DNA of 64,000 nucleotides. Source: Bdellovibrionales bacterium. Lineage in GTDB: Bacteria; Bdellovibrionota; Bdellovibrionia; Bdellovibrionales; UBA1609. The notes beneath the pieces were generated by a model that was not told the origin of the DNA, ran no database searches, and saw only the letters and a list, made by a program, of their open reading frames with translations. Below are positions 210-55,629 of this stretch, piece after piece. Location of the stretch: positions 1,632,001 to 1,696,000 of the forward strand of contig OZ241329.1 of NCBI GenBank assembly GCA_965199825.1, written 5' to 3'. How positions within the stretch are numbered: the stretch's first letter is position 1; every line of letters starts with the position of its first letter. Both the position numbers and the translations under genes were made by a program.

Positions 210-935
210 ATGATCAGAAGTCTTTTAGTATTATTTTTTTTTGTATCTGTTAGTTGTTCTAAAAATAAACATTTGCCTTACGTAGTGCACCTGCCGCAGG
301 TTCATTCAACCGATAACGGCCTGTGGGAATCCGTTGAAGACAATCTTTCTTTAACCCAACAAATTATTGAGTCGCAGCTTGAGATACTCCATATCCTTTT
401 ACAACATCAGCCCGCTGCTGTTTTTGTAGAAGCATACATTCTTTTTGTTACCAGGTCTGATCTGTCACACTTTTATCTCCAAGATGTTCAAGAACATTTT
501 AGAGGTGCGATCCCAACAAGCGAGAGCGAACTGACAGAGACTCAAAGACAAATCCTCTATGAATTTGGCGCCCCATCTGTCGCTTTGGCCTTAGGTTCTA
601 TTTCCAAGATACATCCAACATCAGATTACCAATTTGAAGCGAGCATCCTTGCAAGGCTCAAACAGTTAATCTCAGCGCCACAAGCAGAAGGAATTTATTT
701 TTTGGAGGATGCAGAAGTCAAAAACTTGATTTTTGATATGAGAGAACAAAAAGCTTTAGAGAAAATAAAACAGTACGTCGAAATAAATAAACCTACAGCA
801 CAAATATTTCTTATTTATGGAGCTTTACATTACTTTTCTCCGTTCGATAGTAAACTCCCGTTTATCGTATTGAGAAAAATGGGATCTTGCTCTGAACTCC
901 TAGTTTCGAAATTAGGATTTAACAGCAAGTTGTAA
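210..935 (+). CDS. Exported/lipoprotein hypothetical, possible EreA/ChaN/TIKI-fold protein
   Basis: Signal peptide with Cys (VSVSC); motifs LPQVH, VFVE, MRE, IYGALH in the order typical of that superfamily. Confidence 0.6.
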   Translation: MIRSLLVLFFFVSVSCSKNKHLPYVVHLPQVHSTDNGLWESVEDNLSLTQQIIESQLEILHILLQHQPAAVFVEAYILFVTRSDLSHFYLQDVQEHFRGAIPTSESELTETQRQILYEFGAPSVALALGSISKIHPTSDYQFEASILARLKQLISAPQAEGIYFLEDAEVKNLIFDMREQKALEKIKQYVEINKPTAQIFLIYGALHYFSPFDSKLPFIVLRKMGSCSELLVSKLGFNSKL

Positions 936-1039
936 CTTGTGGTGCGTACCAAACCGGTGATGCGGATAAGTTAGAACCTTGCATCGCCTCATTTTCAAAA
1001 TGAGCAAAGTTGCTTAACCGTAAATTGATCCCGCCATGC

Positions 1040-1954
1040 TTATTTGTATTTGCGGTTGATGTTATATTTTCGTGCGAGTTCGATTTGTGGATTTACTTCA
1101 CCAGGAAAATTTTGAGCAAACCAGCTCACGTTTTTTTGAATAATTTTTTCTATTTTGTCATTGAGGTAGCCAGCATCGATTGCTACGTTTGCTTCATTAT
1201 CTAAATATGATTTTCTAATTCCCGGAAGGTCTATTACCGACCCAATATTCAACGCTCTTAATTGCGGAACTCCATCGGCATCAAATGTGTAGATTGGATC
1301 ACCAGAAGATCCGCCTCTTGTAGGACAGTCATGCAAATAAAGATGATCGATCGATTCGCTTCGAAGTCTGCAAGGAGATGTCCAAATTGAACCAAATTTT
1401 TTATCACCTTGGATGCCAGTAAGAGTGACATTTAGCTTCTCTTCGGCTTTTGCTAATTTTATCCAGCCAATCGTTTTAACAACTCCAATACATCTCTCAA
1501 CATGCAAGATAACCCAGTCATTTCCGTTTACATTGTCAGGTCCCCAAAGAATTGGTTTAGCGGCCAATGTGAAGAATTCATTGCTGCCGAGCTGCCCGAT
1601 CGTCAACGTGACCGTGAAATTCTCGGAATCGGCGTCCTCGTCGCCAAATACAGAATGACGAGCGGCTAGAACATGGCATGGAGATATGGTAAATGCTCCA
1701 GACCCCAGTTTATCTTTTTTATGATTAGACAAAATTTGTCGATTGGTTGCGATGCTGCCGATAAATCCCGCGAGAGGATCGTCTCCTATCGGCTCTCGAA
1801 GATCTTGAACAAAAATATTAGCTTTAAGAAAAACAGAATTGAGATCACCAATTGGAGCGTCCCAACCAATGGAAGGGATTGCGTAAAGATTTGAACTCAA
1901 CGTCATGGTCATTAAACAAAATAAGCAAATGTAAACTAATCTGAGATAATTCAT
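1040..1954 (-). CDS. Secreted trypsin-like (V8/S1B-type) serine protease
   Basis: Signal peptide; catalytic triad motifs LAARHS, NDWVIL, GGSSGDP. Confidence 0.85.
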   Translation of the reverse strand: MNYLRLVYICLFCLMTMTLSSNLYAIPSIGWDAPIGDLNSVFLKANIFVQDLREPIGDDPLAGFIGSIATNRQILSNHKKDKLGSGAFTISPCHVLAARHSVFGDEDADSENFTVTLTIGQLGSNEFFTLAAKPILWGPDNVNGNDWVILHVERCIGVVKTIGWIKLAKAEEKLNVTLTGIQGDKKFGSIWTSPCRLRSESIDHLYLHDCPTRGGSSGDPIYTFDADGVPQLRALNIGSVIDLPGIRKSYLDNEANVAIDAGYLNDKIEKIIQKNVSWFAQNFPGEVNPQIELARKYNINRKYK

Positions 1955-2202
1955 ACTAGAGCAGGCACTAGCATTTGCTTCGAAGTAAGGTCAACGATTA
2001 CGTCACCAAACAGTTTTAGTAGATATCGACGATTTATGAGTCGATCTCATGACCCTACGTCCACCAAAGCCACATTGAAAGATTCACTCTTGAACAGCTG
2101 ACTTATTTCATAAATGACTAAGACGATGACGTTCCATTTTATTTTTTGTTTGTCTTGGGGCATGACGATATAAGCGATTTAACAATTTTTTAAAGGTCCG
2201 CT

Positions 2203-3051
2203 ATGTTTTGTGGGAAACAGTTATTCAGTTTTGTAGCGTTAATAGTTTTGTTTAGTTCTGTTACAGCCGTTGCATCGACTCCAGCAGAAATTCTAAATTC
2301 TAACATTGAATTCCTAGAGCTTCCCGCAAACGCCAAGATCGCCTTAATTCGGGCTCATAATAAGCAATTTGGGCTAGGCCTTGCTCAAAGAGAATTCACC
2401 GTCGGTCATGTGGTTCGAACCTCTTCCCTGTATTTTGCTGCAGTGATAGGTAGTCGGCGAGTGATCGCAGAAATTAAAAGCTCATTAAATAAAAAAAATT
2501 TAAGGCTCGGTATGGTGCAGATCGAAATCGATGAATATTTGAAAAATGGAGAGACTCCACCTTTGTTTCAAAATTCAAGAATCGAAAATCTTCCGCTTAC
2601 ACATTCTGATCTAGTGCAACTTAACAATTCATGTATAAAAACGATTGATCAATTTTTTGGCCTTACGACGCAGGAGTTGTTAAAAAATCATTTCGACTCT
2701 CATACTGGAATATTTTTTAGAACCAAATTTCGCTATTATGATCTCTTCGAAAATTATGGCCATATTTTGTTTGACGATGTTGTGCACCGAGCTCAGTTTT
2801 CTCGCACGCATTTATCAGCGAATACGAGTCTTGATGGGGTTCGGATGAGTACTGAGTGTCGCAGATATTCAAAAAGCTTGGGGCTCAATACTGTTGGCGA
2901 TGTCAAAAATCTCCACGATAACTTCTTGCAAAATTCATCTTCATTTTTGCCAAAGAAAGAAAAAACCGAAATTGAATTTTTAGAACTGCGACGCGTGCTG
3001 AATGCTCTTATTCAAACGTCTTGCGAAGCAAACTTATTACCAAATTATTGA
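2203..3051 (+). CDS. Secreted protein with tandem RNA polymerase alpha-CTD-like repeats (paralog 1)
   Basis: Signal peptide; IEFLEL...IAEIKSSLNKKNLRLGM resembles alpha-CTD; collinear with 3758-4624. Confidence 0.7.
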   Translation: MFCGKQLFSFVALIVLFSSVTAVASTPAEILNSNIEFLELPANAKIALIRAHNKQFGLGLAQREFTVGHVVRTSSLYFAAVIGSRRVIAEIKSSLNKKNLRLGMVQIEIDEYLKNGETPPLFQNSRIENLPLTHSDLVQLNNSCIKTIDQFFGLTTQELLKNHFDSHTGIFFRTKFRYYDLFENYGHILFDDVVHRAQFSRTHLSANTSLDGVRMSTECRRYSKSLGLNTVGDVKNLHDNFLQNSSSFLPKKEKTEIEFLELRRVLNALIQTSCEANLLPNY

Positions 3052-3091
3052 ACGCTGATCTGAATATTTGCCCAAAAGTTACGCCACGTGA

Positions 3092-3583
3092 TTAGCCGTA
3101 CCACAATTTCCATTCTGCTTTGAGGTTGCGGTACGACTCACATTCTTCTACCGCCTGCCATGCGACTTTAAAAATTTCTGCGCATTGGGCTTTGATGGGG
3201 TCAGGATCGTTTGCAAGCTTTGAACGTCCATGACTGCCGCTCACACCTTTTAATTCCTGTGGAACGGGGCCATCATATTTTTTTCCGGAGCGATGATTGG
3301 CGTAGCGTCGAGACCGGGTGTAACCCATTTGCAAAAATTTGCGGGCCATGTCCATTCCGGCAAAATCATTCTCAGATTTATACTTGTGAAAGGCTTGTGA
3401 GATTGCTTGAGCCGATTTTTCTGCGAGATCAGGAGTCTTAAATTTCCATAAGGGCAATATTTCTGATTTGTACGGTTCGACGAGCAAAACGCCTTGTTCA
3501 CCAATACCTACGCGGTAGAGCTCTGGACGTTCGCGGAAATTTATTTTTTTAAAATCTTGAGTGTAGTCAAAGGCCATAGCCAT
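3092..3583 (-). CDS. DUF4385 family protein
   Basis: GEQGVLLVEPYKSEILPLWKFKTP and GMDMARKFLQMGYTRSRRYANH motifs. Confidence 0.85.
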   Translation of the reverse strand: MAMAFDYTQDFKKINFRERPELYRVGIGEQGVLLVEPYKSEILPLWKFKTPDLAEKSAQAISQAFHKYKSENDFAGMDMARKFLQMGYTRSRRYANHRSGKKYDGPVPQELKGVSGSHGRSKLANDPDPIKAQCAEIFKVAWQAVEECESYRNLKAEWKLWYG

Positions 3584-3757
3584 CAAGTCTTATGAGTTTT
3601 AGAAGTCCCAATCAATACCTAACACTCACTTTATTTCAGAGGTGTCTAACAGTCTCACCCAACATGTAAGGCAGGCGCTCTCTTAACTACTGCTAAGGCT
3701 TTTTTAAAAGGCATGGATGTTGAATTGATTATCAAAAAATATTTTAATTGAAGAGGT

Positions 3758-4624
3758 TTGTCGGTGGTCTTTGCAAGGAAGTCTTTATTTGTAGTTACCG
3801 CAATTCTTTTATCCACATCCTCAATTACGTTCGCTGACGAGTCTGAGTCTAATGCTTCTGCGAAAAGAATTTTAAATTCTGGAATTGAAATATTGGGTTT
3901 ATCTTCAAGTAATCAGCTCGAACTGGCGCGCGGTTATGAGATTCAATTCCAAAAACCTCTCAAATGGGAGGACTTCAAGGTTTTAAGGGCGGTCCAAATT
4001 TCTTCTGTTTACCTGACTGGAGATACCGGTTCAAAGGGCCCCGTTGCACAAATTAAAAAAGCTCTGAGTAAATATAATCTTCGCCTTGGGATGGTGAAGG
4101 AAGAAATTGATTATTTCAAAGTCCATGGCGATTCTAAGGGTTTCTTTGCTCAATCACGGATTGAATACCTGCCGTTAGAAAAGGATGATTTGGTTCGTCT
4201 CAATGCTGCTAAGGTGATCACGATTGCTCAATTTTTTTCACGGACAGTCCAAGACTTTTTAATTGATCCCACTGATTCTTTTAGTCCCGATTTCAATGCT
4301 AAAAAGCAAGTATTTGGCGAAATTTTTGAATTTTACAAAAAAACCTTGGATGATGATGTGATTCAACGATCATATCGAAAACACAACCAACTATTTCCTG
4401 AAGTCTCTTTAAACCGAGTTCGAATGAGTTCGAGTTTAAGAGGAATTTTAGAAAAATCGAATCTCATTACTGTTGGACCAATTGCTAAGCTTTCCGATGA
4501 AGAAGCGGTGACACTGGTTTCGCATCACCATATGGAGTCCAAAGTCGAAGTTGAATTTTATGAGTTGCGAGAGCATCTCATTCAACTGACTGCCTCAGCA
4601 TGCCAAGGGGCCTTAACTAACTAA
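3758..4624 (+). CDS. Secreted protein with tandem RNA polymerase alpha-CTD-like repeats (paralog 2)
   Basis: TTG start after GAGG; signal peptide; AQIKKALSKYNLRLGM, SRIEYLPL; paralog of 2203-3051. Confidence 0.7.
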   Translation: MSVVFARKSLFVVTAILLSTSSITFADESESNASAKRILNSGIEILGLSSSNQLELARGYEIQFQKPLKWEDFKVLRAVQISSVYLTGDTGSKGPVAQIKKALSKYNLRLGMVKEEIDYFKVHGDSKGFFAQSRIEYLPLEKDDLVRLNAAKVITIAQFFSRTVQDFLIDPTDSFSPDFNAKKQVFGEIFEFYKKTLDDDVIQRSYRKHNQLFPEVSLNRVRMSSSLRGILEKSNLITVGPIAKLSDEEAVTLVSHHHMESKVEVEFYELREHLIQLTASACQGALTN

Positions 4625-9852: not shown

Positions 9853-10455
9853 ATGATTCATCTCAAAAAGAAAGTTTTCTGTTTCGCTAGCACGCTGCTT
9901 TTTTGCCAAGTGATTTGTGCTCAAGAAATGTGCTTGAGCCAACTTGCCAAAGGCCGACTCAGAAATTTTACTTCTGAGCATATCACTGCAGCGACCGCAA
10001 TTTTGAATGACCCTGAAGTGTCACACTATCTGCATGATCATCCCGCAAATGAAATACCCGATGAATTGGCAAAAATGATTCGCCATGAAGACGACTCGTT
10101 GATCAAAGGATATTGGTATCAGGACGAGCTGGTTGCCTTAGTGGGTCTGCAGCACGATAAAAATCAACTGAGATTTATCGCAAGAACCGAATCCGAAAAA
10201 CAGTATCTGATGATGTGGTTTGCGGTTAAGCCTTCACAACAAGGCCGAGGTTTCGGAACAGGTGCAACAAGAGCTCTGCTCGAATTCTTGTTCGACCACA
10301 CGGACCTTCCGGGAGTGTTTGCTTGTTTCAACAAAGAAAATGTTTTCTCTCGAAATTTAGTGGCAAGAGTTGGATTTTCGCTCACCACTCGCATTGGAGC
10401 CAGCGGATTGATCTGCGCTCACCTTAGCCGCGAGCGATTTTTAAATAAACATTAA
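9853..10455 (+). CDS. Signal-peptide-bearing GNAT (RimJ/RimL-like) acetyltransferase
   Basis: QQGRGFGT acetyl-CoA motif, N..S...RVGF motif; N-terminal signal peptide. Confidence 0.8.
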   Translation: MIHLKKKVFCFASTLLFCQVICAQEMCLSQLAKGRLRNFTSEHITAATAILNDPEVSHYLHDHPANEIPDELAKMIRHEDDSLIKGYWYQDELVALVGLQHDKNQLRFIARTESEKQYLMMWFAVKPSQQGRGFGTGATRALLEFLFDHTDLPGVFACFNKENVFSRNLVARVGFSLTTRIGASGLICAHLSRERFLNKH

Positions 10456-12746: not shown

Positions 12747-12910
12747 TCACCATTTTTTTGTTGGCTGCGTTGGCGGATCCCGTACCACCGGTAAAAAAAG
12801 AAATTCCGGTGGGTGCTCGACCAGATCCAAAAATTCAAATTAAAAAATTAGAAAAGTCGGTGGATAAAATCCTGATTTGGAAAAATAAGCTTGAAGGATT
12901 TCATTGGTGA
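12743..12910 (+). CDS. Small putative exported protein (55 aa; not in ORF track)
   Basis: ATGA overlap with previous stop; MITIFLLAALADPVPPVKKE...EGFHW*. Confidence 0.45.
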   Translation: MITIFLLAALADPVPPVKKEIPVGARPDPKIQIKKLEKSVDKILIWKNKLEGFHW

Positions 12911-13254
12911 TTGAGCTTCGATTTTAGATATGTCGAAATCTCAGTCCGGCCATAAATCCTTTGAAGTAACTCAAAGCCCTGAGCGCCCATAAAATCCTCA
13001 ACCGTTTGGCGAGATTGGTCATGCTCAGCAAAGACTTTATCAAGACGGTAGGAGTGGCGGCAAGCCGGGGTTTGAGCCACCACCTGATTATCACAGATAA
13101 TGCGGATCGGGAAAATGCAAAACATGAGATCATTGAATACGTCTTTAGAGTAGCACGCCGAACTACTTTGAATTTGTTGCGGATTAAAAACTTCGACTTC
13201 ACCAAATTGTGTGGCGCTAGCAAAAAAACAAATTATGAGTTGAACCAAAATCAT
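12901..13254 (-). CDS. Small secreted 4-Cys protein, paralog 4
   Basis: Signal peptide; C..C..I.IIC...VVAQ...C..FM..QGF pattern shared with neighbours. Confidence 0.75.
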   Translation of the reverse strand: MILVQLIICFFASATQFGEVEVFNPQQIQSSSACYSKDVFNDLMFCIFPIRIICDNQVVAQTPACRHSYRLDKVFAEHDQSRQTVEDFMGAQGFELLQRIYGRTEISTYLKSKLNHQ

Positions 13255-13272
13255 CGGATCTCCTGGGTAAAA

Positions 13273-13635
13273 TTAATTCTTTCGATTAAAAGTTAAGAAA
13301 TGAATCTGGGTGGTTGGATTCAAAAGATATTTATAGGATTGATCCAACACAAAACCTTGATCAGTCATAAACTGGTGAATGGCTTCATAGGATGTGTCGA
13401 CCTCTTCTGATTTGCGAAAAATATTAAGGCCTTCGGAACAGGCATTCACCTCGGCCACCACAGTCTCATCGCAAATCAGTTCGATCGGCATTAAGCAAAT
13501 TTGTCGATCCACGAGTACGCAGTTGTTTGAGGCAGAGAGTCTCTGCTGATCGATCACACTTACAATTCCCAGATCGAGCCCGTAAGCGGTAAGCGATTTA
13601 AGAAAGATCGAAACGATGATTAAATAGAATTTCAT
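13273..13635 (-). CDS. Small secreted 4-Cys protein, paralog 3
   Basis: VSVIDQQRLS...C...C..PIELIC...VVAE...C...FM..QGF..DQ. Confidence 0.8.
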   Translation of the reverse strand: MKFYLIIVSIFLKSLTAYGLDLGIVSVIDQQRLSASNNCVLVDRQICLMPIELICDETVVAEVNACSEGLNIFRKSEEVDTSYEAIHQFMTDQGFVLDQSYKYLLNPTTQIHFLTFNRKN

Positions 13636-14004
13636 TTAGTCTTTGGTGACGGTCATCACTCTGTACGCCGCGCCATATCGAAGGGCCTTCGAATTAAGAT
13701 AAAGATCTTGATCAATTTTAAAACCGTTGGAACGAATGAAATCTTTTGTGGTGGCCCAGGAAAGCTCTGCGTCCCGCCTTTTACGTGAATTGCCAGAGTA
13801 TGCGGAACATTGTTCGAGTTCCGCCACAACTTTATTTCCACAAGCGATAGTGATTTTTTCACCGCAATAGGGGGACGCTGTAACGATACAGCTTCTTGCT
13901 TGAGACAAAACGGCTTGATCTAAAACATGGACTTCAAGGCCCAGCGCCGCTTCGCAAGTAAAGACGATCAGAAGAGACAAAAAGTTTACAAGAGATTTGT
14001 TCAT
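13636..14004 (-). CDS. Small secreted 4-Cys protein, paralog 2
   Basis: AAGGAG RBS before ATG 14004; VHVLDQAVLSQARSC... Confidence 0.8.
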   Translation of the reverse strand: MNKSLVNFLSLLIVFTCEAALGLEVHVLDQAVLSQARSCIVTASPYCGEKITIACGNKVVAELEQCSAYSGNSRKRRDAELSWATTKDFIRSNGFKIDQDLYLNSKALRYGAAYRVMTVTKD

Positions 14005-14096
14005 TGGGAGCTGCTCCTTAGATTTCGGAAACCTATTGCAAGATATAATCCCAAGATGCGCCCCATAAATGTTTTTTATTAATCTTGCTACCGACT

Positions 14097-14453
14097 TCAA
14101 TTTTTTATGAAAGTGATAAGTGGGACTTTGCCGTTTTTCCAAATTAAAAATTTAAGTGACTGATCAACCTCAAATTTCTCTCGGTGCATGAACGCCGTGA
14201 GAGTTGAAATGGCGACAGAGTGTTGTTCTGCAGTTTTATTTCTAAAAAAAGTTGTACAGCCCATAATCTCGGCGGTGACTCGACCCCCGCAAAACAGTTG
14301 AATTGGATCTCCGCAATCTCTGACATCAAGAATTAAACAAGATTTTGCCTGAGAGAGATTTTTTTGATCCAAAACATGGACCTTTGAAAAGTCCTGAGCT
14401 TGGCTTAAAATAATATTAGAAAAGATGAGAAAATTTACGAAAGTCATGAACAT
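14097..14453 (-). CDS. Small secreted 4-Cys protein, paralog 1
   Basis: AGGAGG RBS; VHVLDQKNLSQAKSC... Confidence 0.8.
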   Translation of the reverse strand: MFMTFVNFLIFSNIILSQAQDFSKVHVLDQKNLSQAKSCLILDVRDCGDPIQLFCGGRVTAEIMGCTTFFRNKTAEQHSVAISTLTAFMHREKFEVDQSLKFLIWKNGKVPLITFIKN

Positions 14454-14673: not shown

Positions 14674-15124
14674 GTGCTCGGAAGAGGACTTGTTGTTCAC
14701 GGAGCTGCTCGTGCCGCTCCTCCACAGACGGGGAAGCCGCTCGTCAGCCATCGTGGCTGCCGCATCTTGCCGAATGCTTCCTTTGGTCGCATCCAACAAG
14801 ACGACGCGACTTCTCTTCAAGTCCTCTTCTTACAATGCTGTGCGATTGTTATTTGAATTTGTTGGTTTAATTTTTCTTTTGTTTTTTTGGTGCTCGGAAG
14901 AGGACTTGTTGTTCACGGAGCGGCTTGTGCCGCTCCTCCACAGACGGGGAAGCCGCTCGTCAGCCATCGTGGCTGCCGCATCTTGCCGAATGCTTCCTTT
15001 GGTCGCATCCAACAAGACGACGCGACTTCTCTTCAAGTCCTCTTCTTACAATGCTGTGCGATTCTTATTTAAATTTGTTGGTTTAATTTTTCTTTTGTTT
15101 TTTTGGTGCTCGGAAGAGGACTTG
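14674..15124 (-). repeat. tRNA-linked tandem repeat, 216-bp period (about 2.1 copies); each unit ends in the tRNA-Leu 3' end
   Basis: GTGCTCGGAAGAGGACTTG starts at 14674, 14890 and 15106; the two full units differ at 4 positions. Confidence 0.95.
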
Positions 15125-15190
15125 AACCTCCACACCCTTTCGAGCACAGGCTTCTGAGACCTGTGTGTCTACCAATTTCACCATCCGAGC
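15104..15190 (-). tRNA. tRNA-Leu(CAG)
   Basis: Reverse complement GCTCGGATGGTGAAATTGGTAGACAC...CTCAGAA...GGTTCAAGTCCTCTTCCGAGCACCA; long variable arm. Confidence 0.96.
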
Positions 15191-24285: not shown

Positions 24286-25482
24286 ATGATCTCACTTCGT
24301 CAATGGTTGAAAATTTTAAATTGTCCAGCACGGGTTGGTGGTCGACTTCGCTATGCTTCGCGCGCGCGATATGAGTCAGGGGACTTCGAGCTCTACGGTC
24401 AAGGCTGTGTGGTCAAAATTAAATCTCACGGTGTTCAATCAAAAGCCAGCGATGGGGATTTGATTTTGCTTGGCGTGGATCGGCCACCAGTTGCAGGCAT
24501 CATTCATTTATCCGGGTTAGCAGAGATCGAGATTGTGACAAAAACCTCAACTCCACCACAGATTTTTAGCAACGCCGAAATTCAAAAAAAGTGGTTTCAT
24601 TTTTTGCGTGATATCGAAGAGATTTTTGATGATCTTGGCCTATTGAGAGTAACAACACCGACACGAGTCAAATCCAATGGTCTTGAGCCAAGCATCGAGC
24701 CGATTGCCAGCGAAGATCTTTTTTTACCAACAAGTCCAGAGCTCGCCTTAAAAAAAATTTTGAGTCATGATTTTACCGATATCTATGAAATCCGCGCCTG
24801 CTTTCGGAAAGAAACCCCAACGCCACATCACTTAAGTGAATTTACGATGATCGAATGGTACAGGGGCTTTGCCGATCTCAGAAAAATTGAAAACGACATT
24901 GAAGTTTTGATTCAAAAACTTTTCAGTAAAAATTGGCATCATGATAAACGTCCACTACAAAAAATGACAATGGCCGAGGTCTTTCAAGACGCGCTTAATT
25001 TTGAACTCAAAAGTTCAACCACCCAATTAGAAATACAAAATTGTTTACGCGAGCACGGCCAACATTTCCAAACGGATTGGAACTTTGACGACAGTTTTAA
25101 CGCCTTATTTGTGACCCTTGTGGAACCCTATCTTAAAAACAAAGGCCCATTGCTTATAGGTCAATTTCCACCTTCGCAAGCGGCGTTGGCTCGAATTAAT
25201 CAGGACGGTTGGGCCGAGCGTGTGGAACTCTATTGGAATGGCTTAGAGCTTGCAAATGGCTATGACGAACTTGTGGATCCGGTAGAACAGCGAGTTCGAT
25301 TTAATAAAGATATACAAAAACGAAAGCTCAACCATAAAATTGATTTACCCATAGATGAAGACTTTTTGGCGGCACTCACTGCAGGCTTACCTCCAACGGC
25401 CGGGATCGCACTCGGTCTTGAGCGCTTATTTATGGCCTGTGTCCAACTTTCAAATATTCAGGATCTTAAATTTTTTAATTAA
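24286..25482 (+). CDS. epmA: EF-P lysine aminoacylase (GenX/PoxA) with N-terminal extension
   Basis: LPTSPELALKK, CFRKE...HLSEFTMIEWYR, QAALAR, ELANGYDEL, GIALGLERL. Confidence 0.88.
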   Translation: MISLRQWLKILNCPARVGGRLRYASRARYESGDFELYGQGCVVKIKSHGVQSKASDGDLILLGVDRPPVAGIIHLSGLAEIEIVTKTSTPPQIFSNAEIQKKWFHFLRDIEEIFDDLGLLRVTTPTRVKSNGLEPSIEPIASEDLFLPTSPELALKKILSHDFTDIYEIRACFRKETPTPHHLSEFTMIEWYRGFADLRKIENDIEVLIQKLFSKNWHHDKRPLQKMTMAEVFQDALNFELKSSTTQLEIQNCLREHGQHFQTDWNFDDSFNALFVTLVEPYLKNKGPLLIGQFPPSQAALARINQDGWAERVELYWNGLELANGYDELVDPVEQRVRFNKDIQKRKLNHKIDLPIDEDFLAALTAGLPPTAGIALGLERLFMACVQLSNIQDLKFFN

Positions 25483-26071
25483 AATTATTTTGTCGATTGG
25501 TTCTTTTATAAGTGTGGCCGATCCTGTTACGAAAAGGTGCACCGCTTTTTTAGCTCTGGGAGATCCGATCACCATTGCAATGATCAAGGCCAATAAAATT
25601 GCACCGCATATTGAAAGTTTTAATCAACTTGAAGTATTGGCCCATTTTCTTAAAGATCCCGTGACTCAAGCCGAGTTGATAGAGCCGGCCAACAAATTTC
25701 AGATCACTACCTTATCCCAAGCATTGAATGTCCATCCGCTCGTTGCTCAAAATCGAATTCGCCATACCAAAGCCAATTTGCTTAAAAACGCCACAATTGT
25801 AGTTAATGTATTTAGCTCTACTCCGATCACACAACTTGATGATTTCTATATTCATGGCGAACTGTATGAAGTGTCCCAATCTTTAAAAGTGGGCCTTCGG
25901 ATTGAGCAACTTTTATCAACCATCAACACCGATTCTTGGATCAATTCTAAAAGTCGTATTGATCAACGACTCAAACTCAAAACCGAATTGATGGCCCAAA
26001 ATAAATTCGACTCCTCTTTTGCAAAACTCTTTAATGATGTGGTCGTTGCGGTTTTAAACAATTCCAATTAA
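25355..26071 (+). CDS. Hypothetical protein, probably exported (true start likely near 25480)
   Basis: Open frame fills the gap between epmA and M48; hydrophobic stretch then KRCTAFL. Confidence 0.55.
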   Translation: MKTFWRHSLQAYLQRPGSHSVLSAYLWPVSNFQIFRILNFLIKIILSIGSFISVADPVTKRCTAFLALGDPITIAMIKANKIAPHIESFNQLEVLAHFLKDPVTQAELIEPANKFQITTLSQALNVHPLVAQNRIRHTKANLLKNATIVVNVFSSTPITQLDDFYIHGELYEVSQSLKVGLRIEQLLSTINTDSWINSKSRIDQRLKLKTELMAQNKFDSSFAKLFNDVVVAVLNNSN

Positions 26072-46829: not shown

Positions 46830-48842
46830 ATGTCTTCAAACTATTCAGTTCAGGTACGATCTTCCGGTCGAATGCTGTTTTTAATTTTATGTTTTTTTTG
46901 TTTCAGCGCAAGAGCTACTGACTGCATAACTATATTGAGTTCAAGCCCTCACACAACAGCATTCCACGATGATCAAGATGCATTTACTGCTTTAGGTGAA
47001 TCCCTCCGCAATATTATTTCACCTGTGAACGATGGTAAACCCACCGTGATCAATATGATTGATCAGGAAATCCAAGCCACTAAAACTGCGTCGGACGAAG
47101 TTTTTATCACTTGGACTGGATCGGCCAATTCAGGCAAATCGACTTTGTTTAATATGATCGCACAAACTATTGGCGGCAGTCCCATCCGCGAGCTTTCAAA
47201 AGCCGGAGTCAGAGCGGGCCTAACCACGCGACTCACTGTCGGTGTGGGATCAAACGATCCTGGCCAAGCTTTCGAACGGGATCGTCGTGAGCGACTAGGT
47301 CCTTTACAACTTTGGCAAAATAACATGGATGCCACAACTCCTGGAAAAGGATTGATTGTTCAGCTTCCGAATTTACCAACAGGAATTGCGATCATCGATG
47401 CACCTGATATTAATTCTGGATCGCGTTTTTCGGCTGAGCCTACAAATCTTAATTCGGCTCTTCAGGTAATCTACACCTCCGATGTTCTCTTAATTATTGT
47501 TGATAAAAAAGATTATGCGAATCGCGACTTGCGTGTGGGTCTTAATACCATATTTAAAAAATATGGAGTGAAGCACACCATACTCATTTTTGAAGGCAAA
47601 GAGGCCAATGACTCTGCCGTAATCGCACAAATGCTCAAAGAGTTTGCCAACGAAATTTATCCAAAAAAGTATCACAATCCTAATGGTGGATATCCTGACC
47701 CGGTATTGGCAGCTTATCTTGTGCCTGATGATAACGATGTGGTCCTTGGCCGTGCTCATCCGCGATTGATTCCTGTGGGCGGAAGTCGTCTCTCGATAGA
47801 CGATGTCATTCATCGCATCAGTTATAATCGGAAACATATTCGTGCGTCGTCGTTGGCTTTTACCAAAGAAGCGATTGTTACTGCTGCTCACCAAGAACTT
47901 ACTCATGTGAAACAACAAAGACTTGCAGCCCAACTTTATTTGAAGGGTGTGATGGATGCCATCGATACCGCAGCCTCATCTAAACTTTTAGATTACCCAT
48001 ATGAAGAGGCCAAAAAATATATTCGCGATACATTTGTTGAGCAGCTCTCAGACAACCGACAACTGCTTGAGAAAGTGACCCAAGTTTTTTCGCCTGAGAT
48101 TGTTAAAAATTTATTTAAAGTTTTCTCTAAAGGAACCCCTCCTGAGTTTGTAAAAACCAATCATCTTGAACACGATTCCTTTGCGGTATCACAGCTCAAA
48201 CTTCAACTGGCTTCAATTCAAAATCACCAGCTTATAATTCAGAGCGAAAGCGACCGGGCCCTTTATAAAAAAACTTTTCCGGGCGAACAGATTGGCGATC
48301 GATACTCTTTACCCAGTAAAGAATTGCTCTCTCCAGAAATTCGTAAGTCATTTGACGATATGCTCAATGCCGATTCAGCAATTTGGAGCGCCGGAATAGG
48401 AAAAAAAATAACCGAGCGCCAAAGCATTCATAAAAATAGTGAAATCGAAAAGCTGCTCTCAAATTTGGCCCAAAAAAGAATGATGAAGATTACCGCTATG
48501 GGATTGCTTACCGTAGCCTCACCTCTCGCAGGTCTTGTAGGAATGAGCTTTGTTGGGGCAACCTCATTTACCGCCTGGCTTGCTGCGGCCATTGGTCCTC
48601 CAATTTTGCTCAAAAGAGTGCAAAGCCAGATGATTGATAACCATTTAAAAGAATCCCTAAATGTTTGGTTCAAACAACTCCAAATCGATGCCACGCGTGA
48701 ATACTTTTACGAAGCGTTAGCACCTCTTATGAGTCAATTGAGCGCGCAGTCGGCTCTTCATAGCCGAGATCTTGATAATGCTCAGCGAGCCATCCAGTTT
48801 TTGAGCCCCAAGGGCGAAAGTCCAATCCAAACCCTACGGTAA
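46830..48842 (+). CDS. Signal-peptide-bearing dynamin-like/TRAFAC GTPase
   Basis: GSANSGKS (G1), LTT (G2), DAPD (G3), helical region, C-terminal hydrophobic hairpin; start may be ATG 46872. Confidence 0.75.
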   Translation: MSSNYSVQVRSSGRMLFLILCFFCFSARATDCITILSSSPHTTAFHDDQDAFTALGESLRNIISPVNDGKPTVINMIDQEIQATKTASDEVFITWTGSANSGKSTLFNMIAQTIGGSPIRELSKAGVRAGLTTRLTVGVGSNDPGQAFERDRRERLGPLQLWQNNMDATTPGKGLIVQLPNLPTGIAIIDAPDINSGSRFSAEPTNLNSALQVIYTSDVLLIIVDKKDYANRDLRVGLNTIFKKYGVKHTILIFEGKEANDSAVIAQMLKEFANEIYPKKYHNPNGGYPDPVLAAYLVPDDNDVVLGRAHPRLIPVGGSRLSIDDVIHRISYNRKHIRASSLAFTKEAIVTAAHQELTHVKQQRLAAQLYLKGVMDAIDTAASSKLLDYPYEEAKKYIRDTFVEQLSDNRQLLEKVTQVFSPEIVKNLFKVFSKGTPPEFVKTNHLEHDSFAVSQLKLQLASIQNHQLIIQSESDRALYKKTFPGEQIGDRYSLPSKELLSPEIRKSFDDMLNADSAIWSAGIGKKITERQSIHKNSEIEKLLSNLAQKRMMKITAMGLLTVASPLAGLVGMSFVGATSFTAWLAAAIGPPILLKRVQSQMIDNHLKESLNVWFKQLQIDATREYFYEALAPLMSQLSAQSALHSRDLDNAQRAIQFLSPKGESPIQTLR

Positions 48843-48864: not shown

Positions 48865-49686
48865 TTGGATGCTAGTAAAGGGGGATTTGGGGTGGTTGTT
48901 ATTTTTGTTTTGATGCAGATGTTCGCATTTGCTGACTGTGAACACATTTTGAATTCAAACATCTTGTGGTCTGCGCTCAACAAACCAAAAATGATTCCTC
49001 AAAAACCGGTAGGCTCTTTCACAAAAAAATACGCCCATCACGAATTTTTTGATCAAGATCAAATCCCGTGGACTTTCATCAAAGACGACCGTTACTTGGA
49101 TCTCAATACCGCATCGAGTGTGATCTCATCTCTTATTTATTCGCACTTTCAAATTTTAACTCCGATCACCACTCGCTACATGAATTATGCGGCGATTCGT
49201 TCTTTAGAAACCAATCTCCCTCTTGGTCGCCTTGATCATCTCGACACTCAGAAAGTTCGTGGGCTTATTTTTGTGGCGGCATTTTTACAAGATCTTAAGC
49301 GGCTTGAAAACGACCAAAGTAATCTTCTACTCAAACAAAATGAGTTTATAGCTTTAGATTTTAGCCAAACACTAGGTGCTGGCAAAAATGGTTTTCATAA
49401 AAAAGGTCGAATTATAAGTGGTGCGGTAGGGGGTTATCCGGCGTTTAAATCAATGGCTGAAGCTTTAAACCAAATAGATTGGACACTGCTTGATAAAAAT
49501 CATCCTTGGAAAAATCTGAACGAGGAGGATTATGATTTTGCTCTGCGCGGGTTTGACAGTTTAAGCGACCAAGATATCCAGGCTTACGTCGAGGCGGCCG
49601 AGTACTCAGAGCCCCTAGATGCTCAATATATGATCGAAAAACTGATTCATAATCGAGATATTTTTAAACGCGACCTTCGTCGATAG
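48865..49686 (+). CDS. Secreted hypothetical protein, possible HipA/PI-kinase-like fold
   Basis: Signal peptide; AFLQD.KR....SNLLL...IALDFS. Confidence 0.55.
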   Translation: MDASKGGFGVVVIFVLMQMFAFADCEHILNSNILWSALNKPKMIPQKPVGSFTKKYAHHEFFDQDQIPWTFIKDDRYLDLNTASSVISSLIYSHFQILTPITTRYMNYAAIRSLETNLPLGRLDHLDTQKVRGLIFVAAFLQDLKRLENDQSNLLLKQNEFIALDFSQTLGAGKNGFHKKGRIISGAVGGYPAFKSMAEALNQIDWTLLDKNHPWKNLNEEDYDFALRGFDSLSDQDIQAYVEAAEYSEPLDAQYMIEKLIHNRDIFKRDLRR

Positions 49687-50522: not shown

Positions 50523-50524
50523 TC

Positions 50525-51619
50525 TTGTCTGACGTTTATTTCCAAACTATTCGAAGTTACTTGGGTCCAATCCTTCATTTTTTAGAAGATGAATCCGTCA
50601 CCGAAGTCATGATCAACAGTCCAAGCGAAATTTGGATCGAAGTTGCCGGAAAAATTCAAAAGACCACAGCCAAATTTCAAGACGAAGATTCATTGCGTGC
50701 AGCTGTCAACAATATCGCCCAAAGTGTTGGCAGAAGAATCAACGACGAGGAGCCTCGGCTAGATGCCCGATTGCCCAATGGCTATCGTATTCATGCGGTT
50801 ATTCCTCCGTGCGCGCGCAAAGGGACCACTCTAGCGATTCGAAAATTTTCGAAAGTTCAATTTACATTTAAGGATTATATTCGGATTGGTGCCTTAAGCG
50901 TTGATGGTGCACAGTTTTTAGATATCGCAATGAAACTCGGAAAAAACATTTTGGTCAGCGGTGGAACGGGTTCAGGAAAAACCACTTTGCTCAGTGTTTT
51001 GAGTAACCGAATTCCAAGCGGCCAACGCGTGATCGTGATCGAAGATTCAAGTGAACTCCAAGTAGAGTATGAGCATGTGGTATTTTTTGAAACTCGCATG
51101 CCTGATGAACAAGGTCGTAACGAAGTGACCATTCGTGATCTACTCAAAAGCAGTTTAAGGCTCAGACCCGACCGCATCATTGTGGGTGAGGTTCGTGGTG
51201 CTGAGGCTTTAGAATTGGTCCAAGCCATGAACACCGGTCACAAAGGTTGTATGGGAACCATCCATTCCAACTCGGCATCGGATGCATTGGTGCGACTCGA
51301 AGCCCTCGCTCAAGGTGGAGATTCTAGATTGAGCGAAAAAGCACTTCGGTATCAGATCGGATCGGCAATTGATCTTGTTGTTCAAATTTCAAGATACCCC
51401 GATGGTTCAAGACGTATTGGTGAAATTGCAGAGGTGCTAGGATGGGACAAAGAGGGAACATACAATGTTGCACCGATTTACCGTCTGTCTCGTTTGGTCA
51501 AAAAACCAGACGGAAAACTAGAAGGCTCTCTCGTTGCAACCGGTGAAGTGCCCTCGTTTATCGACGAGATCGAAGACAATCAAATTCCATTTCCAAGGAC
51601 TAAGTTTAAGGCCGCATGA
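50525..51619 (+). CDS. cpaF: CpaF/TadA family secretion ATPase
   Basis: DARLPNG, IRKF, GGTGSGKTT, IEDSSEL, LRLRPDRIIVGEVRG, AMNTGH..TIH. Confidence 0.9.
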   Translation: MSDVYFQTIRSYLGPILHFLEDESVTEVMINSPSEIWIEVAGKIQKTTAKFQDEDSLRAAVNNIAQSVGRRINDEEPRLDARLPNGYRIHAVIPPCARKGTTLAIRKFSKVQFTFKDYIRIGALSVDGAQFLDIAMKLGKNILVSGGTGSGKTTLLSVLSNRIPSGQRVIVIEDSSELQVEYEHVVFFETRMPDEQGRNEVTIRDLLKSSLRLRPDRIIVGEVRGAEALELVQAMNTGHKGCMGTIHSNSASDALVRLEALAQGGDSRLSEKALRYQIGSAIDLVVQISRYPDGSRRIGEIAEVLGWDKEGTYNVAPIYRLSRLVKKPDGKLEGSLVATGEVPSFIDEIEDNQIPFPRTKFKAA

Positions 51620-51709: not shown

Positions 51710-52720
51710 GTGTACTTCAGTGGTAAAATCACAAATTCTTTTGTTCAATATTTAGGTCGGCAGGGCATCGACACCGAGCGCCTTTTTGAACTGACCGAGT
51801 TACCCACCGAGTTTTTGCAAGATTCTTCGTGCTGGCTCAATGCCGCCGATGTCGAAGCCTTTTTAAATATTATCGAGCGCGAATTTAGCAATAAATTTCC
51901 CGACAAAAATTTGATGTGTGCAGTCGGTCATGCTTGTAACGATATCAAGGCCTGGGGTGTATTAGACGGCGTCTTAAAGATGATGCAAAAACCCACCGAC
52001 ATTTACTCGCAACCCCAACGGTTTATTTCTTATTTTGTTTCGCCCGCACCACCTATTGGAAATCTTCAACGTGAAGACGAAAGCATCTCGTTTGATTTGC
52101 CATTTTCAAATACCGAATTTCCACTCGCCACCGAATATCTGAGAGCAGCGTTTGAGGCCTTGCCTTTGTATGTCGGAAAAAACATGTCGAGCGCACAGTG
52201 GCGTCACACAAAACTGACGGTGTCCTGGTCAGAGGCGCAAGAGTCACTGATCGAGAATTCTGAATTTGTGGTGAAGCCTGAGGTCATTCATGAATTGGTG
52301 GCTTCACTTGAAGAAGCTCAACGCGAACTCGAAACCCAAAAACAAATTGTGATGGCCCAAGCTCATGAGATTGAGCAACTCAAATCTCTAAGTTTAGGCA
52401 CCGAACGGATCAAAAGCGCATTCAATGAAGACGATATGATGATGATGCGCAGCCAAGTTTTGCGCTTGAGTGATTATATCACCCGATCACTCCAACTCGT
52501 CACACTTCTTGTTCGTCAAAATCGGCTCGACCGCCAGGTTCAAGAGGCGATGAAGCGACTCGATTGGGATTTTGTATCCACCCAGTACCGAGATGTTGTC
52601 GATGATTTATTAAAAAAGATTGAAACGTTAAAGCTAATTCCAGCCACACCTGTTAAACCCACTCGAGCCCTTAAACGCAAACGCACTTCAAGCGAGCTCG
52701 AACTCACCGCAACCAGTTAG
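51710..52720 (+). CDS. Hypothetical protein (sensor-like N-terminus, coiled-coil C-terminus)
   Basis: Long GTG-start ORF in operon with eno. Confidence 0.7.
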
Positions 52721-52727
52721 GAACAAA

Positions 52728-54005
52728 ATGAGCAAAATTAAAAAAGTAAAAGCCCGTGAAATCCTTGATTCTCGGGGTACGCCTACACTTGAAGTCGAAG
52801 TCGAACTCTCAAGCGGAATGATCGGTCGAGCCGCAGTGCCAAGTGGAGCCTCCACCGGAGCCCACGAAGCTTTAGAACTTCGCGACCAAGATCCCAAACG
52901 CTATTTTGGCAAAGGTGTTTTAAAAGCCATCGATAACGTCAACACAATCATTGCTCGCGCGGTGGTCGGTCTTTCGATGGATGATCGCACTGTGATAGAA
53001 AAAAAATTGAAGGAACTTGATCCCACCCCAAATAAGTCAAAACTTGGAGCGAATGCAATTTTGGGAGTGTCGCTCGCAAGTGTAAAAGCTCAGGCTCAAC
53101 ACGAGGATTTGCCTCTTTATCAATATCTCAATGATCAAGAAGACTATAGTCTGCCAGTGCCATTAATGAATGTTCTCAATGGCGGGGCTCACGCCGATAA
53201 TGGGGTTGATGTTCAAGAATTTATGATTGTTCCTCACGGTCAAAAAAACTTTCGTGAGGCTTTGCGCTGTGGCGCCGAAGTTTTTCATAATCTCAAAACA
53301 ATCTTAAAAAAACGTGGGCTCGTGACCGCAGTTGGTGATGAAGGGGGATTTGCTCCACACCTTAAGGGCAATGCTGAAGCCTTGACCTTGATCTGTGAAG
53401 CCATCGAGCTCAGTGGATACAAACTCGGTCAGGACGTTTCGCTCGCCCTCGATGTGGCTGCAACCGAATTTTTTAAAGACGGCAGTTATCATTGGGAAAA
53501 AGAAAATTTAACCGCCGCTCAATTGATTGCGGTCTATCAAGATTGGCGCAAAAAATTCCCAATTGTCAGTATTGAAGACGGTTTGTCAGAGGATGATTGG
53601 GAGGGCTGGAAGACTTTGACCGAGACTATGGGTCGATCAACTCAATTGGTAGGTGATGATTTATTTGTGACCAACCCTGAGCGAATTACGCGTGGGATCG
53701 AAGGCCACATTGCCAATGCGGTTTTGATCAAAGTGAACCAAATTGGCTCTCTCTCGCAAACAGAAGAGGCTGTGCGCATCGCTAAACAAGGTGAGTATGC
53801 GACAGTGATGTCTCATCGCAGTGGCGAAACTGAAGATACAACCATTGCCGATTTGGCGGTGGCTTTGCAGTGTGAACAAATCAAGACAGGAAGCTTGTGC
53901 CGAGGAGAGCGAACTGCTAAATATAATCAATTGCTTCGAATAGAAGACGAACTCGGGACCCACGCAAAATTTCTGGGTCGCAAAGCTTTTAAAGCTGTCG
54001 AATGA
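52728..54005 (+). CDS. eno: Enolase
   Basis: [41 protein letters not shown]. Confidence 0.98.
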
Positions 54006-54025
54006 TTCCTTACTAAGGAGAGATT

Positions 54026-54769
54026 GTGTTTTCAGTGTTATTTTATTTTATGTCGGCGCAGGCTGCGTCGGCAAATTGTAGTGCTTTAAATAGCATTAAC
54101 TTCGAAATTCCTGGAGTTCAGCTCCAAGCTCGCACTGTCAAACGTGACGAATATAGATCTCTGATGGAATTGATTTTCGGCAAAGTCGCATTTAATTTTG
54201 ATTCTAAAGAAGTCAACTCACCCGATGACACCGCAAAGCTAGTTTGGACCAATCATTTCGAGCCTCTGCTTCAGAGCAGTCGATTCACTTATCATGAAAT
54301 GGCCAAGATCAATATGGATTCAAAAATAACAATTTTTGATGCTCGTTCAAAATCAGATCCTAAGGTGAGTTATTTTGATAACCCGGCTCAATTTTTTAAA
54401 GGCAGTCCTTTTGCCATTATAACCGTAGGAATTTTTTCTGGAGCTAAACTGATTGGGTTTGCTTCGATTTACAAAGATACGACTACAACTGCAAGATATC
54501 TAAACCCGCATTTCAGCAACCAGACCGTGTTTATTACTGTCGCTTTAAGTCGCCAAACTCGGCGGCTCGTTGAAGTCACAAAGGCAGCAATGAATTATGC
54601 TTTCCAAACACTCAAAGTTGAGGAAGTTATTGTCCCTTTGCCGATCGACGAAAACATCGAAAGATTAGGGCATGCCTTACAACTTAATAAAGGTGAGCAG
54701 CACGGAAATCTGAATTACATGTGGCGAAACACGATTCCGGTTTCTCACTCTGCCGCCGGCAACGACTGA
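54026..54769 (+). CDS. Secreted hypothetical protein with degenerate GNAT-like C-terminus
   Basis: GGAG RBS, GTG start, signal peptide; LIGFASIY...AMNYAFQTLKVEEV resembles RimJ/RimL GNATs. Confidence 0.55.
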   Translation: MFSVLFYFMSAQAASANCSALNSINFEIPGVQLQARTVKRDEYRSLMELIFGKVAFNFDSKEVNSPDDTAKLVWTNHFEPLLQSSRFTYHEMAKINMDSKITIFDARSKSDPKVSYFDNPAQFFKGSPFAIITVGIFSGAKLIGFASIYKDTTTTARYLNPHFSNQTVFITVALSRQTRRLVEVTKAAMNYAFQTLKVEEVIVPLPIDENIERLGHALQLNKGEQHGNLNYMWRNTIPVSHSAAGND

Positions 54770-55629
54770 AGCATCAACTGGCAAAAAAAGTTCATCGGAA
54801 CTTCGGGTAATTGATAGGGGCGCGGCTCGTTGAGGTTTTTGATTTCTGATTGCAACTGACTCACCGACCAACCCTTTTCGCTCAACAACCGTTCGGCTTG
54901 CACCGCCAAAATCATATTTCGACCGGCTCCCTCAAAATCCTCGTCCATCCCTGCGGGCTTGGCATAGGCTAAAGTGAACAATCGGCCGTGCGGGTGCATG
55001 GGACTCGGAGTCTCAGCCACTTGCAGCGCCATCTTTTGGGGCACCATACGGTAGGCGACATGACCCAAATTTAATTTTTGGGCGAGATCTTTTGCGACTT
55101 CATATGAGTTTCCTAAAGACTCTAGTTTTTGAACCACATCGCTTAAACTTTCTTTTTTTAAAGCCTGTTCTAAAAGGGCCGACACAATTTCCAATTGATC
55201 GCTCGAGGTATTGAGTCTTATTTTTTTGATTTGCCCTTGAGGAAATTCGGCGGTGGGGGATTCAAAGATTTCAATCCCATCTTTGACGGGTACAATTCGG
55301 TAATGCGACTTACGACTTGAGGATGAACGAAATAATAATTCTGAAGCGGTGAGAGGTGTGAGGCGAGGGACTGCATTGCCAAACTTATTTTTTAAAATTT
55401 GTAAGATTTCGCGCGCGCCCGTCGTGCCAAATCTCTGATCCAGTGTGGCCAGCAAAACTCCGGTGTGTTGGTGATTCAATGGGGTTTTAAGATCTGGTTC
55501 TACCGGTTTAAAGAGTGGATACCATCGTTCGCGATCGGCAACTGCGACTTGTTTTCCATCTATAAAAAATCGGGCGTGCACGGTTTGTAGGGGCAACATC
55601 AAAACAAAAAATAAAATTTTAAAATTCAT
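54745..55629 (-). CDS. Secreted hypothetical protein
   Basis: ATG 55629 overlaps argR end; signal peptide MNFKILFFVLMLPLQTVHA. Confidence 0.65.
   Translation of the reverse strand: MNFKILFFVLMLPLQTVHARFFIDGKQVAVADRERWYPLFKPVEPDLKTPLNHQHTGVLLATLDQRFGTTGAREILQILKNKFGNAVPRLTPLTASELLFRSSSSRKSHYRIVPVKDGIEIFESPTAEFPQGQIKKIRLNTSSDQLEIVSALLEQALKKESLSDVVQKLESLGNSYEVAKDLAQKLNLGHVAYRMVPQKMALQVAETPSPMHPHGRLFTLAYAKPAGMDEDFEGAGRNMILAVQAERLLSEKGWSVSQLQSEIKNLNEPRPYQLPEVPMNFFCQLMLQSLPAAE

Follow-up and report, generated by a model that had tools for sequence, protein, structure and literature searches.

A stretch of 64,000 nucleotides from a Bdellovibrionales genome (C1:1632001-1696000, hereafter the window) encodes a series of predicted exported proteins that carry, near one end of the mature chain, a cysteine followed four positions later by a leucine (C-x3-L, hereafter the tag). 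A sequence-only reading of the window had reported nine signal-peptide open reading frames (ORFs) with this motif and had proposed that they are effectors delivered in two steps into another cell. The nine Cys motifs all lie at the positions it gave, and seven of the ORFs stand as strict cases; of the other two, one carries CSAL, which is C-x2-L, and the one adjacent to epmA needs an ATT start. Analysis of the whole genome (2.84 Mb, completeness rating 100%; 2697 genes called with a dicodon model) showed the tag to be genuine and spread over the whole proteome. Signal peptides were called by a heuristic based on hydrophobicity and AxA, not by SignalP, and every count given below rests on these calls.

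Tagged proteins encoded in the window

Of the nine proteins, six can be taken as solid members, two as looser ones and one as doubtful. Two of them are paralogs (37% identity): the ORF 2203..3051 (+ strand) encodes a signal peptide followed by RNA polymerase alpha-CTD-like repeats and the C-terminal tag CEANL (3022-3036), and the ORF 3764..4624 (+) has its single mature Cys in the C-terminal tag CQGAL (4601-4615). The alpha-CTD likeness of the first is weak (E 0.005 against PDB; 0.002 against Pfam in one homolog); an Atlas search with this protein gave no usable match. Two outside homologs of this pair (P0005 and P0006) both retain the C-terminal Cys tag, and P0006 has gained an extra repeat with the tag still C-terminal. 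The ORF 9853..10455 (+) encodes a signal peptide and a RimL-type GNAT acetyltransferase (PF13302, 1.7e-13) with the N-terminal tag CLSQL (9931-9945). Further downstream, the ORF 46872..48842 (+) encodes a signal peptide and a P-loop GTPase (PF01926, 1.2e-4) whose single mature Cys belongs to the N-terminal tag CITIL (46923-46937), and is followed by the ORF 48865..49686 (+), encoding a signal peptide and a kinase-like domain with the N-terminal tag CEHIL (48937-48951). The homologs of the latter display the motifs DWDR..N..DFG; the window copy reads DLKR..N..DFS and, because its catalytic motifs are altered, its kinase activity is uncertain. Its single-sequence fold (pLDDT 33) was unusable. 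On the minus strand, an orphan located behind argR (54745..55629) has a signal peptide and a single Cys, within the C-terminal tag CQLML (54783-54769); a homolog search in 251 genomes matched the source genome only.

The orphan located behind epmA (25478..26071, +; single Cys) carries the N-terminal tag CTAFL (25538-25552), and its full signal peptide is obtained only from the non-canonical ATT start at 25478, the first TTG being at 25490. This ATT overlaps the epmA stop and could be a rare start, a mutation or a sequence error. The ORF 54026..54769 (+) encodes a signal peptide and a single Cys in the looser N-terminal motif CSAL (54077-54088). Both of these proteins and the orphan behind argR stay unannotated. 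The doubtful member (210..935, +) is an exported TraB/TIKI-like protein with CSELL at 888-902. In two paralogs, C16 and C227 are each aligned with a Cys, and Leu is lacking at +4. The protein is therefore probably not a tag carrier, which goes against the sequence-only reading; C227 is probably a structural Cys paired with C16, unless the protein is a lipoprotein at C16. A swap of the tag between the C-terminal end of this protein and an N-terminal Cys of its paralogs was considered and rejected, since the alignment shows two conserved Cys instead.

The cargo labels first proposed for the window fared unevenly. The GNAT at 9853 and the GTPase at 46872 hold, the alpha-CTD-like repeats are weakly supported, the kinase-like label is drawn from homolog motifs only, the TIKI-like label is a lead only (Atlas, 0.81), and the GNAT fold suspected by eye for the 54026 protein was not confirmed by sequence searches. 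Word-based homolog searches with the 48865, 46872 and 210 proteins returned the queries themselves only, and PDB sequence searches with alignment A2 and with the 54026 and 46872 proteins were empty or at chance level. A metagenome scan gave no match.

Proteome-wide prevalence of the tag

The genome-wide test compared 801 predicted exported proteins with 1306 cytosolic ones, an N-end tag being defined as C-x3-L within mature residues 2-16 and a C-end tag as C-x3-L located 5-16 residues before the chain end. A strict tag is present in 118 of the 801 exported proteins, i.e., about one in seven. At the N-end, it was found in 61 exported versus 17 cytosolic proteins (odds ratio (OR) 6.3, p 2e-13) and, at the C-end, in 59 versus 19 (OR 5.4, p 7e-12); only two proteins carry it at both ends, compared to 4.5 expected. 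Shuffling of the mature chains (300 shuffles) yields 8.2 ± 2.8 N-end and 8.5 ± 3.1 C-end matches, so that about 17 of the 118 are expected by chance and the excess is seven-fold; the cytosolic set shows no enrichment. When only the terminal 15-16 residues are permuted, 15.7 ± 3.9 and 17.2 ± 3.8 matches are obtained; since the excess survives this second control, the spacing from Cys to Leu is itself selected. The positional enrichment over shuffled and non-secreted controls that had been suggested as a check was thus found on a genome-wide scale (p < 1e-11 per end). In the window, 7 of the 23 predicted exported proteins are strictly tagged versus 0.55 expected.

The description of a portable tag with a lone Cys on unrelated proteins holds far beyond the window. 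A relaxed pattern retrieves 179 proteins that group into 150 BLAST families, 131 of which are singletons (177/675 observed compared to 53.7 ± 6.0 after shuffling). A test without any selection for Leu considered the non-lipoprotein exported proteins having a single Cys: this Cys lies near an end in 91 of 138, whereas 26.5 were expected, and is followed by Leu at +4 in 31/47 (N-end) and 31/44 (C-end), compared to 27/210 in cytosolic proteins. If Leu at +3 or +4 is counted, these figures rise to 41/47 and 38/44. At both ends alike, the fraction of hydrophobic residues after the tag Cys is 0.66 at position +3 and 0.79-0.80 at position +4, compared to 0.28 in the background. A more accurate notation is therefore C-x-x-hydrophobic-L, in which Leu stands at +3, +4 or both and the orientation is the same at either end. 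Because Pro and Gly are depleted at +1 to +4 and small polar residues often precede the Cys, the tag fits the start of a short helix. Its distance from the N- or C-terminus ranges from 2 to about 50 residues, the C-terminal tags peaking 6-12 residues from the chain end.

The tagged genes are scattered across the chromosome, and 38 of the 118 have a tagged neighbor. The sequence-only reading had correctly named epmA, phoH, eno and argR as housekeeping neighbors of window members. Placement behind such genes is not a trait of the tag, a cytosolic gene directly preceding 18 of the 118 tagged genes versus 139 of 683 untagged ones (p 0.21). Elsewhere on the chromosome, seven tandem genes (C1:540188-546067) encode exported proteins of 180-210 residues; the three members that were read carry C-x3-L internally, some 55 residues before the end, where it may be a tag behind a longer tail.

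The cysteine and its chain

The tag Cys is often the only one of its chain (60 of 118 tagged chains). Odd Cys counts outnumber even ones in tagged chains (82:36), compared to 180:310 in untagged exported proteins; exported proteins of disulfide-forming bacteria show a bias toward even counts. Outside the tag, the Cys content is 0.43%, versus 0.80% in other exported proteins and 1.08% in cytosolic ones, and the overall body composition is nearer to that of the cytosolic set. The genome encodes DsbA and a VKOR-DsbA fusion, and the periplasm of this organism is therefore likely oxidizing. Given a lone Cys, a Cys-poor chain and this likely oxidizing compartment, the tag Cys most plausibly reacts with a partner outside its own chain.

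Cargo of the tagged proteins

A Pfam scan was carried out on the 95 tagged proteins encoded within 40 fetched loci and on 85 untagged exported neighbors (86 were listed, and the 54026 protein of the window was dropped for its loose tag). Only 15 of the 95 tagged proteins have a match: ten cytoplasm-type (DnaJ twice, AIM24, AAA, PrkA, peptide deformylase, ABC1 kinase, GNAT, MutS and MaoC), two ambiguous (EEP nuclease and HEAT) and three envelope-type, which are probably matched by chance. In the control set, 28 of 85 have a match, i.e., 21 envelope-type, four ambiguous or noise, and three cytoplasm-type that look like false signal calls. Among informative matches, with classes assigned by judgement, the contrast between cytoplasm- and envelope-type is 10 versus 3 for tagged and 3 versus 21 for untagged proteins (p 1.7e-4), in agreement with the cytoplasm-type cargo proposed initially. 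Enzymes that need ATP, GTP, NAD or acetyl-CoA, or proteins mimicking RNA polymerase, have no evident work in the periplasm. For the tagged PrkA, deformylase and MutS, the same genome also encodes cytosolic paralogs, from which these signal-bearing versions have diverged.

The kinase-like family of the 48865 protein is small, and its members are often fused to ADP-ribosyltransferase-like (weak Pfam support, E 0.037) or other domains. Eight members were found outside the source genome: six have an N-terminal Cys tag, one is lipoprotein-like (locus L214) and one is truncated in its locus, the N-terminus being missing. As for P0006, the tag stays terminal in the fusions with ADP-ribosyltransferase-like domains despite the added domains. 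Loci L214, L216, L217, L230, L231 and L233 show this family as polymorphic-toxin-like, with signal peptide and N-terminal tag, the L217 copy being in pieces.

An exported PrkA/AAA/SpoVR-YeaH operon

Three adjacent genes (C1:1097685-1108532) each encode a predicted signal peptide and a tag: a PrkA-like protein (N-end tag), an AAA protein of 1783 residues (C-end tag) and a SpoVR-YeaH fusion (N-end tag). PrkA-YeaH-SpoVR is known from many bacteria as an operon of cytoplasmic type, according to the accessible text of PMC5430801. The housekeeping version is also present in the genome, and the three genes constitute a second, exported version of it. Fifteen genomes were queried, 14 of them chosen for an extra or weak SpoVR match and one (G128) used as a control. 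The fusion was found in the 14 chosen Bdellovibrionales genomes and not in the control. In these 14 genomes and in the source genome, a signal peptide and a Cys tag open the fusion, and a further Cys tag closes the product of the upstream AAA gene. With two tags counted per genome (AAA C-end, fusion N-end), the Cys is conserved in 30/30 and position +4 is Leu in 25/30, Phe in one and Ala in four. An alignment of 11 sequences (A3, 23-39% identity) shows the tag Cys (C16) as invariant within a variable tail, 4-32 residues after the cleavage site. The housekeeping PrkA has neither signal peptide nor tag in 12 of 12 cases. A three-part machine with a tag on each subunit is best understood as components sent one by one through a shared gate. 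A genome-wide C-x-x-S-A-V-P dialect considered in two genomes (G156 and G163) was not supported, the pattern counts (2 and 6) being near those of controls. One of the 14, a 1.6 Mb genome (G006), carries the fusion although the SpoVR family search gave a weak match only.

Distribution among relatives

Forty genomes of relatives were drawn, none of them a congener of the source genome. Translation with recoded TGA was considered for them and, since table 4 gave little extra coding coverage, table 11 was retained. In 80 loci around TadA, 9 of 281 proteins are tagged versus 3.3 expected. Three genomes picked for their kinase-like gene, hence not blind, show 3/23, 2/6 and 1/7 tagged proteins. The genus of G128, which includes many complete genomes of 3-4 Mb, shows isolated clear cases such as a Fic-domain protein; if it were the cultured model genus, the rarity of the tag in it would account for the lack of a description so far. 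In a family outside the order (f20), an ABC1 kinase homolog keeps the C-terminal tag at 26% identity. Overall, individual families conserve the tag throughout the order and outside it, and proteome-wide enrichment is found for the source genome only. The sequence-only reading had suggested repeating the test across Bdellovibrionota; blind samples of 12 other genomes show no significant excess, and the expansion of the tag is therefore lineage-specific. The sample also included reduced Bdellovibrionales of 1.2-1.8 Mb and more than 90% completeness (G002, G006, G017, G018, G022, G031 and others), most of them without a SpoVR match.

Candidate conduits and other features

Candidate conduits are encoded in the genome, namely four secretins together with two Tad loci, a type II secretion system and a type IVa pilus; no result ties any of them to the tag. 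One Tad locus (C1:1619292-1627377; Flp pilin, TadE-like proteins, secretin and ATPase) stops some 4.6 kb short of the window. The other one (C1:1121183-1131576) adjoins an RHS/YD-like protein. Within the window, a TadA/CpaF-type pilus ATPase (50561..51619, +) is a candidate conduit component; its best relatives served to place the genome among the Bdellovibrionales. A further locus (C1:442387-447630) encodes three related exported proteins, one of which matches TraF_2 (likely outer-membrane barrels), and two interleaved Cys-rich predicted lipoproteins; one protein of this locus ends in a lone Cys and is a possible carrier candidate.

The window also includes four tandem genes encoding small exported paralogs (12901-14453, minus strand; about 120 residues and four Cys each, no Pfam match) and a direct repeat of about 190 bases (14690-15157), seen as a repeated open frame and probably non-coding. 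Short tandem repeats reading CRARLS/CRARSK (C1:1618331-1618888 and 2565464-2565775) are probably non-coding too.

Proposed role of the tag and alternatives

We judge it marginally probable that the motif is a second-step address label, allowing disulfide docking on a periplasmic receptor or carrier and delivery into the cytoplasm of bacterial prey. Sec export would leave enzymes depending on ATP, GTP, NAD or acetyl-CoA without their cofactors and thus harmless to the producer. The motif would form one to two helical turns whose Leu face lies in a hydrophobic groove and whose Cys pairs with a receptor Cys, DsbA and the VKOR-DsbA fusion being available to oxidize it. The load could then be carried across by a Tad, type II or type IVa pilus machine, or by vesicles, and the reducing prey cytoplasm would break the disulfide and free the enzyme, as for the A subunits of AB toxins. 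More tentatively, and with rather less confidence than for the address label as such, we suggest an undescribed delivery route of Bdellovibrionota, in which a position-independent, redox-released Cys-helix tag, equivalent in bacteria to the Mia40 signal, would load over 100 Sec-exported effectors onto one carrier destined for the prey cytoplasm; this load would include alpha-CTD mimics, kinase/ADP-ribosyltransferase fusions and, subunit by subunit, the PrkA-YeaH-SpoVR machine. The two-step delivery proposed from the window alone has gained from the enrichment, the portability of the tag, the lone Cys and the cargo; its receptor did not appear in our search by eye, and delivery is deduced from sequence.

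Several observations weigh against delivery by such a label. The hunt by eye for a receptor, carrier or conduit singled out none; it covered the Tad, type II secretion, type IVa pilus, Dsb and barrel loci as well as listed proteins with a lone Cys or a CxxC motif. No family was seen with an N-end tag in one member and a C-end tag in another, and no shared promoter was detected upstream of the tagged genes (strict sigma-54 in 1/118 and FliA-like in 8/118, the latter with p 0.07; the best of tens of thousands of gapped 6-mers tested had p 5e-6). Pfam leaves 80 of the 95 proteins without a match, so that the cargo claim depends on the remaining 15; when all proteins are counted, the contrast shrinks to 10/95 versus 3/85 (p 0.087, or 0.002 once the three false signal calls are dropped). 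The signal-peptide calls are heuristic. Blind 60-160 kb samples of 11 other genomes gave 18/323 tagged versus 12.4 expected (p 0.08) and 940 kb of G128 gave 6/254 versus 4.8 under the strict pattern (12 versus 7.4 with Phe permitted), so many relatives are not dependent on a large tagged set. Finally, in the two sampled genomes of genus g127, which account for all four Ala cases, both operon tags become C-x-x-S-A, a joint change that fits tag-to-tag pairing at least as well.

If tags do pair with each other, a Cys-Cys bond between two short helices would give homo- or heterodimers, or a stored periplasmic form, without dedicated receptor. The joint change in g127, found nowhere else there by pattern count, and the N- and C-tagged genes lying side by side in several operons (with a tagged neighbor for 38/118 genes) speak for it. 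The two g127 genomes are, however, close kin and their tags lie about 130 bases apart, so that local copying could explain the match. Moreover, 131 of the 150 families are singletons and most tagged genes are alone, and interfaces private to each dimer would not arrive at the same motif, oriented the same way, at either end; we regard pairing as quite unlikely. An anchor seems somewhat less improbable to us, although still unlikely. The Cys would be lipid-modified by an undescribed lipobox-independent enzyme or disulfide-tied to the predator envelope or vesicles, and the cargo enzymes would work where the two cells touch or on prey contents that leak out. Such an anchor would suit a lone terminal Cys followed by hydrophobic residues and the lipoprotein-like kinase homolog of locus L214. 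It accounts poorly for cargo such as alpha-CTD-like, MutS, deformylase and PrkA-type proteins, which have no evident substrate at the cell surface, and for the lack of a fixed cleavage geometry, the tag lying anywhere from 2 to about 50 residues from either end; only 3/61 N-end tags fit a lipobox and the C-end tags show no GGC, membrane helix or CaaX. Action on leaked contents would agree with the report, in the accessible text of PMC10482364, that the cytoplasmic and the periplasmic pool of the prey come partly into equilibrium.

The same handle could also serve delivery into a eukaryotic host cell or its organelles, given cargo with AIM24, ABC1 and HEAT domains (and ankyrin and ELM1 domains in relatives) and four small contigs (C2-C5) that look by eye like eukaryotic tandem repeats or mobile elements, are likely not bacterial and hint at a eukaryote accompanying the assembled bacterium. 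We hold this target very unlikely, as cultured Bdellovibrionales prey on bacteria, no CaaX box was found, nearly all of the best 80 TadA relatives bear Bdellovibrionota-type labels (mostly Bdellovibrionales), and the alpha-CTD-like, PrkA/YeaH/SpoVR and deformylase cargo suggests bacterial machinery. As for chance or a by-product (structural Cys, misread lipoproteins or wrong signal-peptide calls), it applies to the 210 protein, to about 3 of the 15 Pfam-matched proteins and to the roughly 17 of 118 matches expected at random. As a general explanation it is hardly credible in view of the seven-fold excess that survives local shuffles at each end, the single-Cys test and the Cys present in 30/30 operon tags.

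How Bdellovibrio-type predators transfer enzymes into a prey cytoplasm still bounded by its membrane is an open question in the accessible texts of PMC2797640 and PMC10482364. A five-residue tag makes this question directly testable, gives a rule for reading effector repertoires from genomes rich in orphan exported proteins and points to unexpected cargo such as the exported PrkA-YeaH-SpoVR operon.

Comparison with known signals and systems

As far as the literature searched goes (short of most subscription papers and of all supplements), the tag is undescribed; no description of it was found in the accessible parts of PMC2797640, PMC10482364, 10.1101/506055 and PMC12419801. It was compared with established signals, and the twin-arginine motif RRxF[LI] occurs in none of the 118 tagged proteins and CaaX in none of the 801 exported ones. 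An intramolecular staple disagrees with the odd:even Cys ratio (82:36) and with the two proteins tagged at both ends, and likely concerns only the 210 protein. The MYXO-CTERM signal consists of Gly-Cys, then a membrane helix and, last, a basic tail, and the lipobox of a hydrophobic stretch before a +1 Cys. Like MYXO-CTERM/myxosortase and lipobox signals, the tag brings a terminal Cys to many unrelated exported proteins of a predatory lineage of deltaproteobacterial type. Unlike them, it is the same motif at both ends, without GGC or membrane helix: GGC occurs in 0/59 and GC in 4/59 C-end tags, the tails after the Cys are short, polar and devoid of membrane helix or basic tail, and [LVI][ASTVI][GAS]C is compatible with 3 of the 61 N-end tags, the other 59 tags being C-terminal. 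Type IX secretion relies on a beta-rich C-terminal domain of 70-80 residues and on the Por/Spr machinery. No such Pfam domain was found in the 95 tagged proteins (the machinery was not searched), and the tag has five residues and is also N-terminal. In AB toxins, the A subunit is tethered by a disulfide and freed in the reducing cytosol. Sec export, a terminal Cys tether and reductive release would be common to both, but AB toxins have their own B subunit in the operon, and no B-like partner lies beside the tagged genes.

Two signals come closer. The secretion signal of type IVb pilus (T4bP) systems (TcpF/CofJ) is a short motif that follows the cleavage site and is recognized by a minor pilin (PMC9565799); no pilin stood out here as a candidate partner. 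Judging from the accessible text of this source, it resembles what is proposed for the tag in that a second machine reads a short motif after Sec export and in that motifs drift between lineages. The 61 N-end tags are indeed short mature N-terminal motifs following a Sec signal, the 59 others being C-terminal. By contrast, the motifs quoted there are aromatic-centred (FxxxYxSxS, SxGGAFT), devoid of Cys and N-terminal only, and serve one cognate protein per pilus operon, compared to about 150 dispersed families here. The mitochondrial Mia40 signal (ITS/MISS) combines a Cys and hydrophobic neighbors on a short helix that is active at either end (accessible text of PMC2806287). The tag likewise has hydrophobic residues on the Cys face at either end, its helix being a prediction. 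Mia40, a receptor oxidoreductase that forms a mixed disulfide with its substrates, acts in eukaryotic import and oxidative folding of twin-CX3C/CX9C proteins, whereas the tag concerns bacterial export of mostly single-Cys chains (60/118). No Mia40-like receptor is known in this genome, in which no profile search was made for one. The likeness to Mia40 is an analogy of mechanism, not membership.

Regarding predation machines, the accessible text of PMC12075869 describes Myxococcus Kil, a Tad-like machine, as killing prey and, like the Tad and type II systems of Bdellovibrio, as proposed to deliver effectors on contact, and gives no substrate signal for them, a difference from the tag. A Bdellovibrio outer-membrane protein was also reported at the prey inner membrane, perhaps via vesicles (accessible text of PMC12228718). 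Overall, the tag belongs to neither the T4bP nor the Mia40 signal family and, since every known signal that could be tested fails, we rate it as new in kind. New elements are the statistics on the scale of the proteome, the finding that the N- and C-end motifs are identical, the unpaired-Cys and cargo tests, the exported operon and the lineage-specific expansion.

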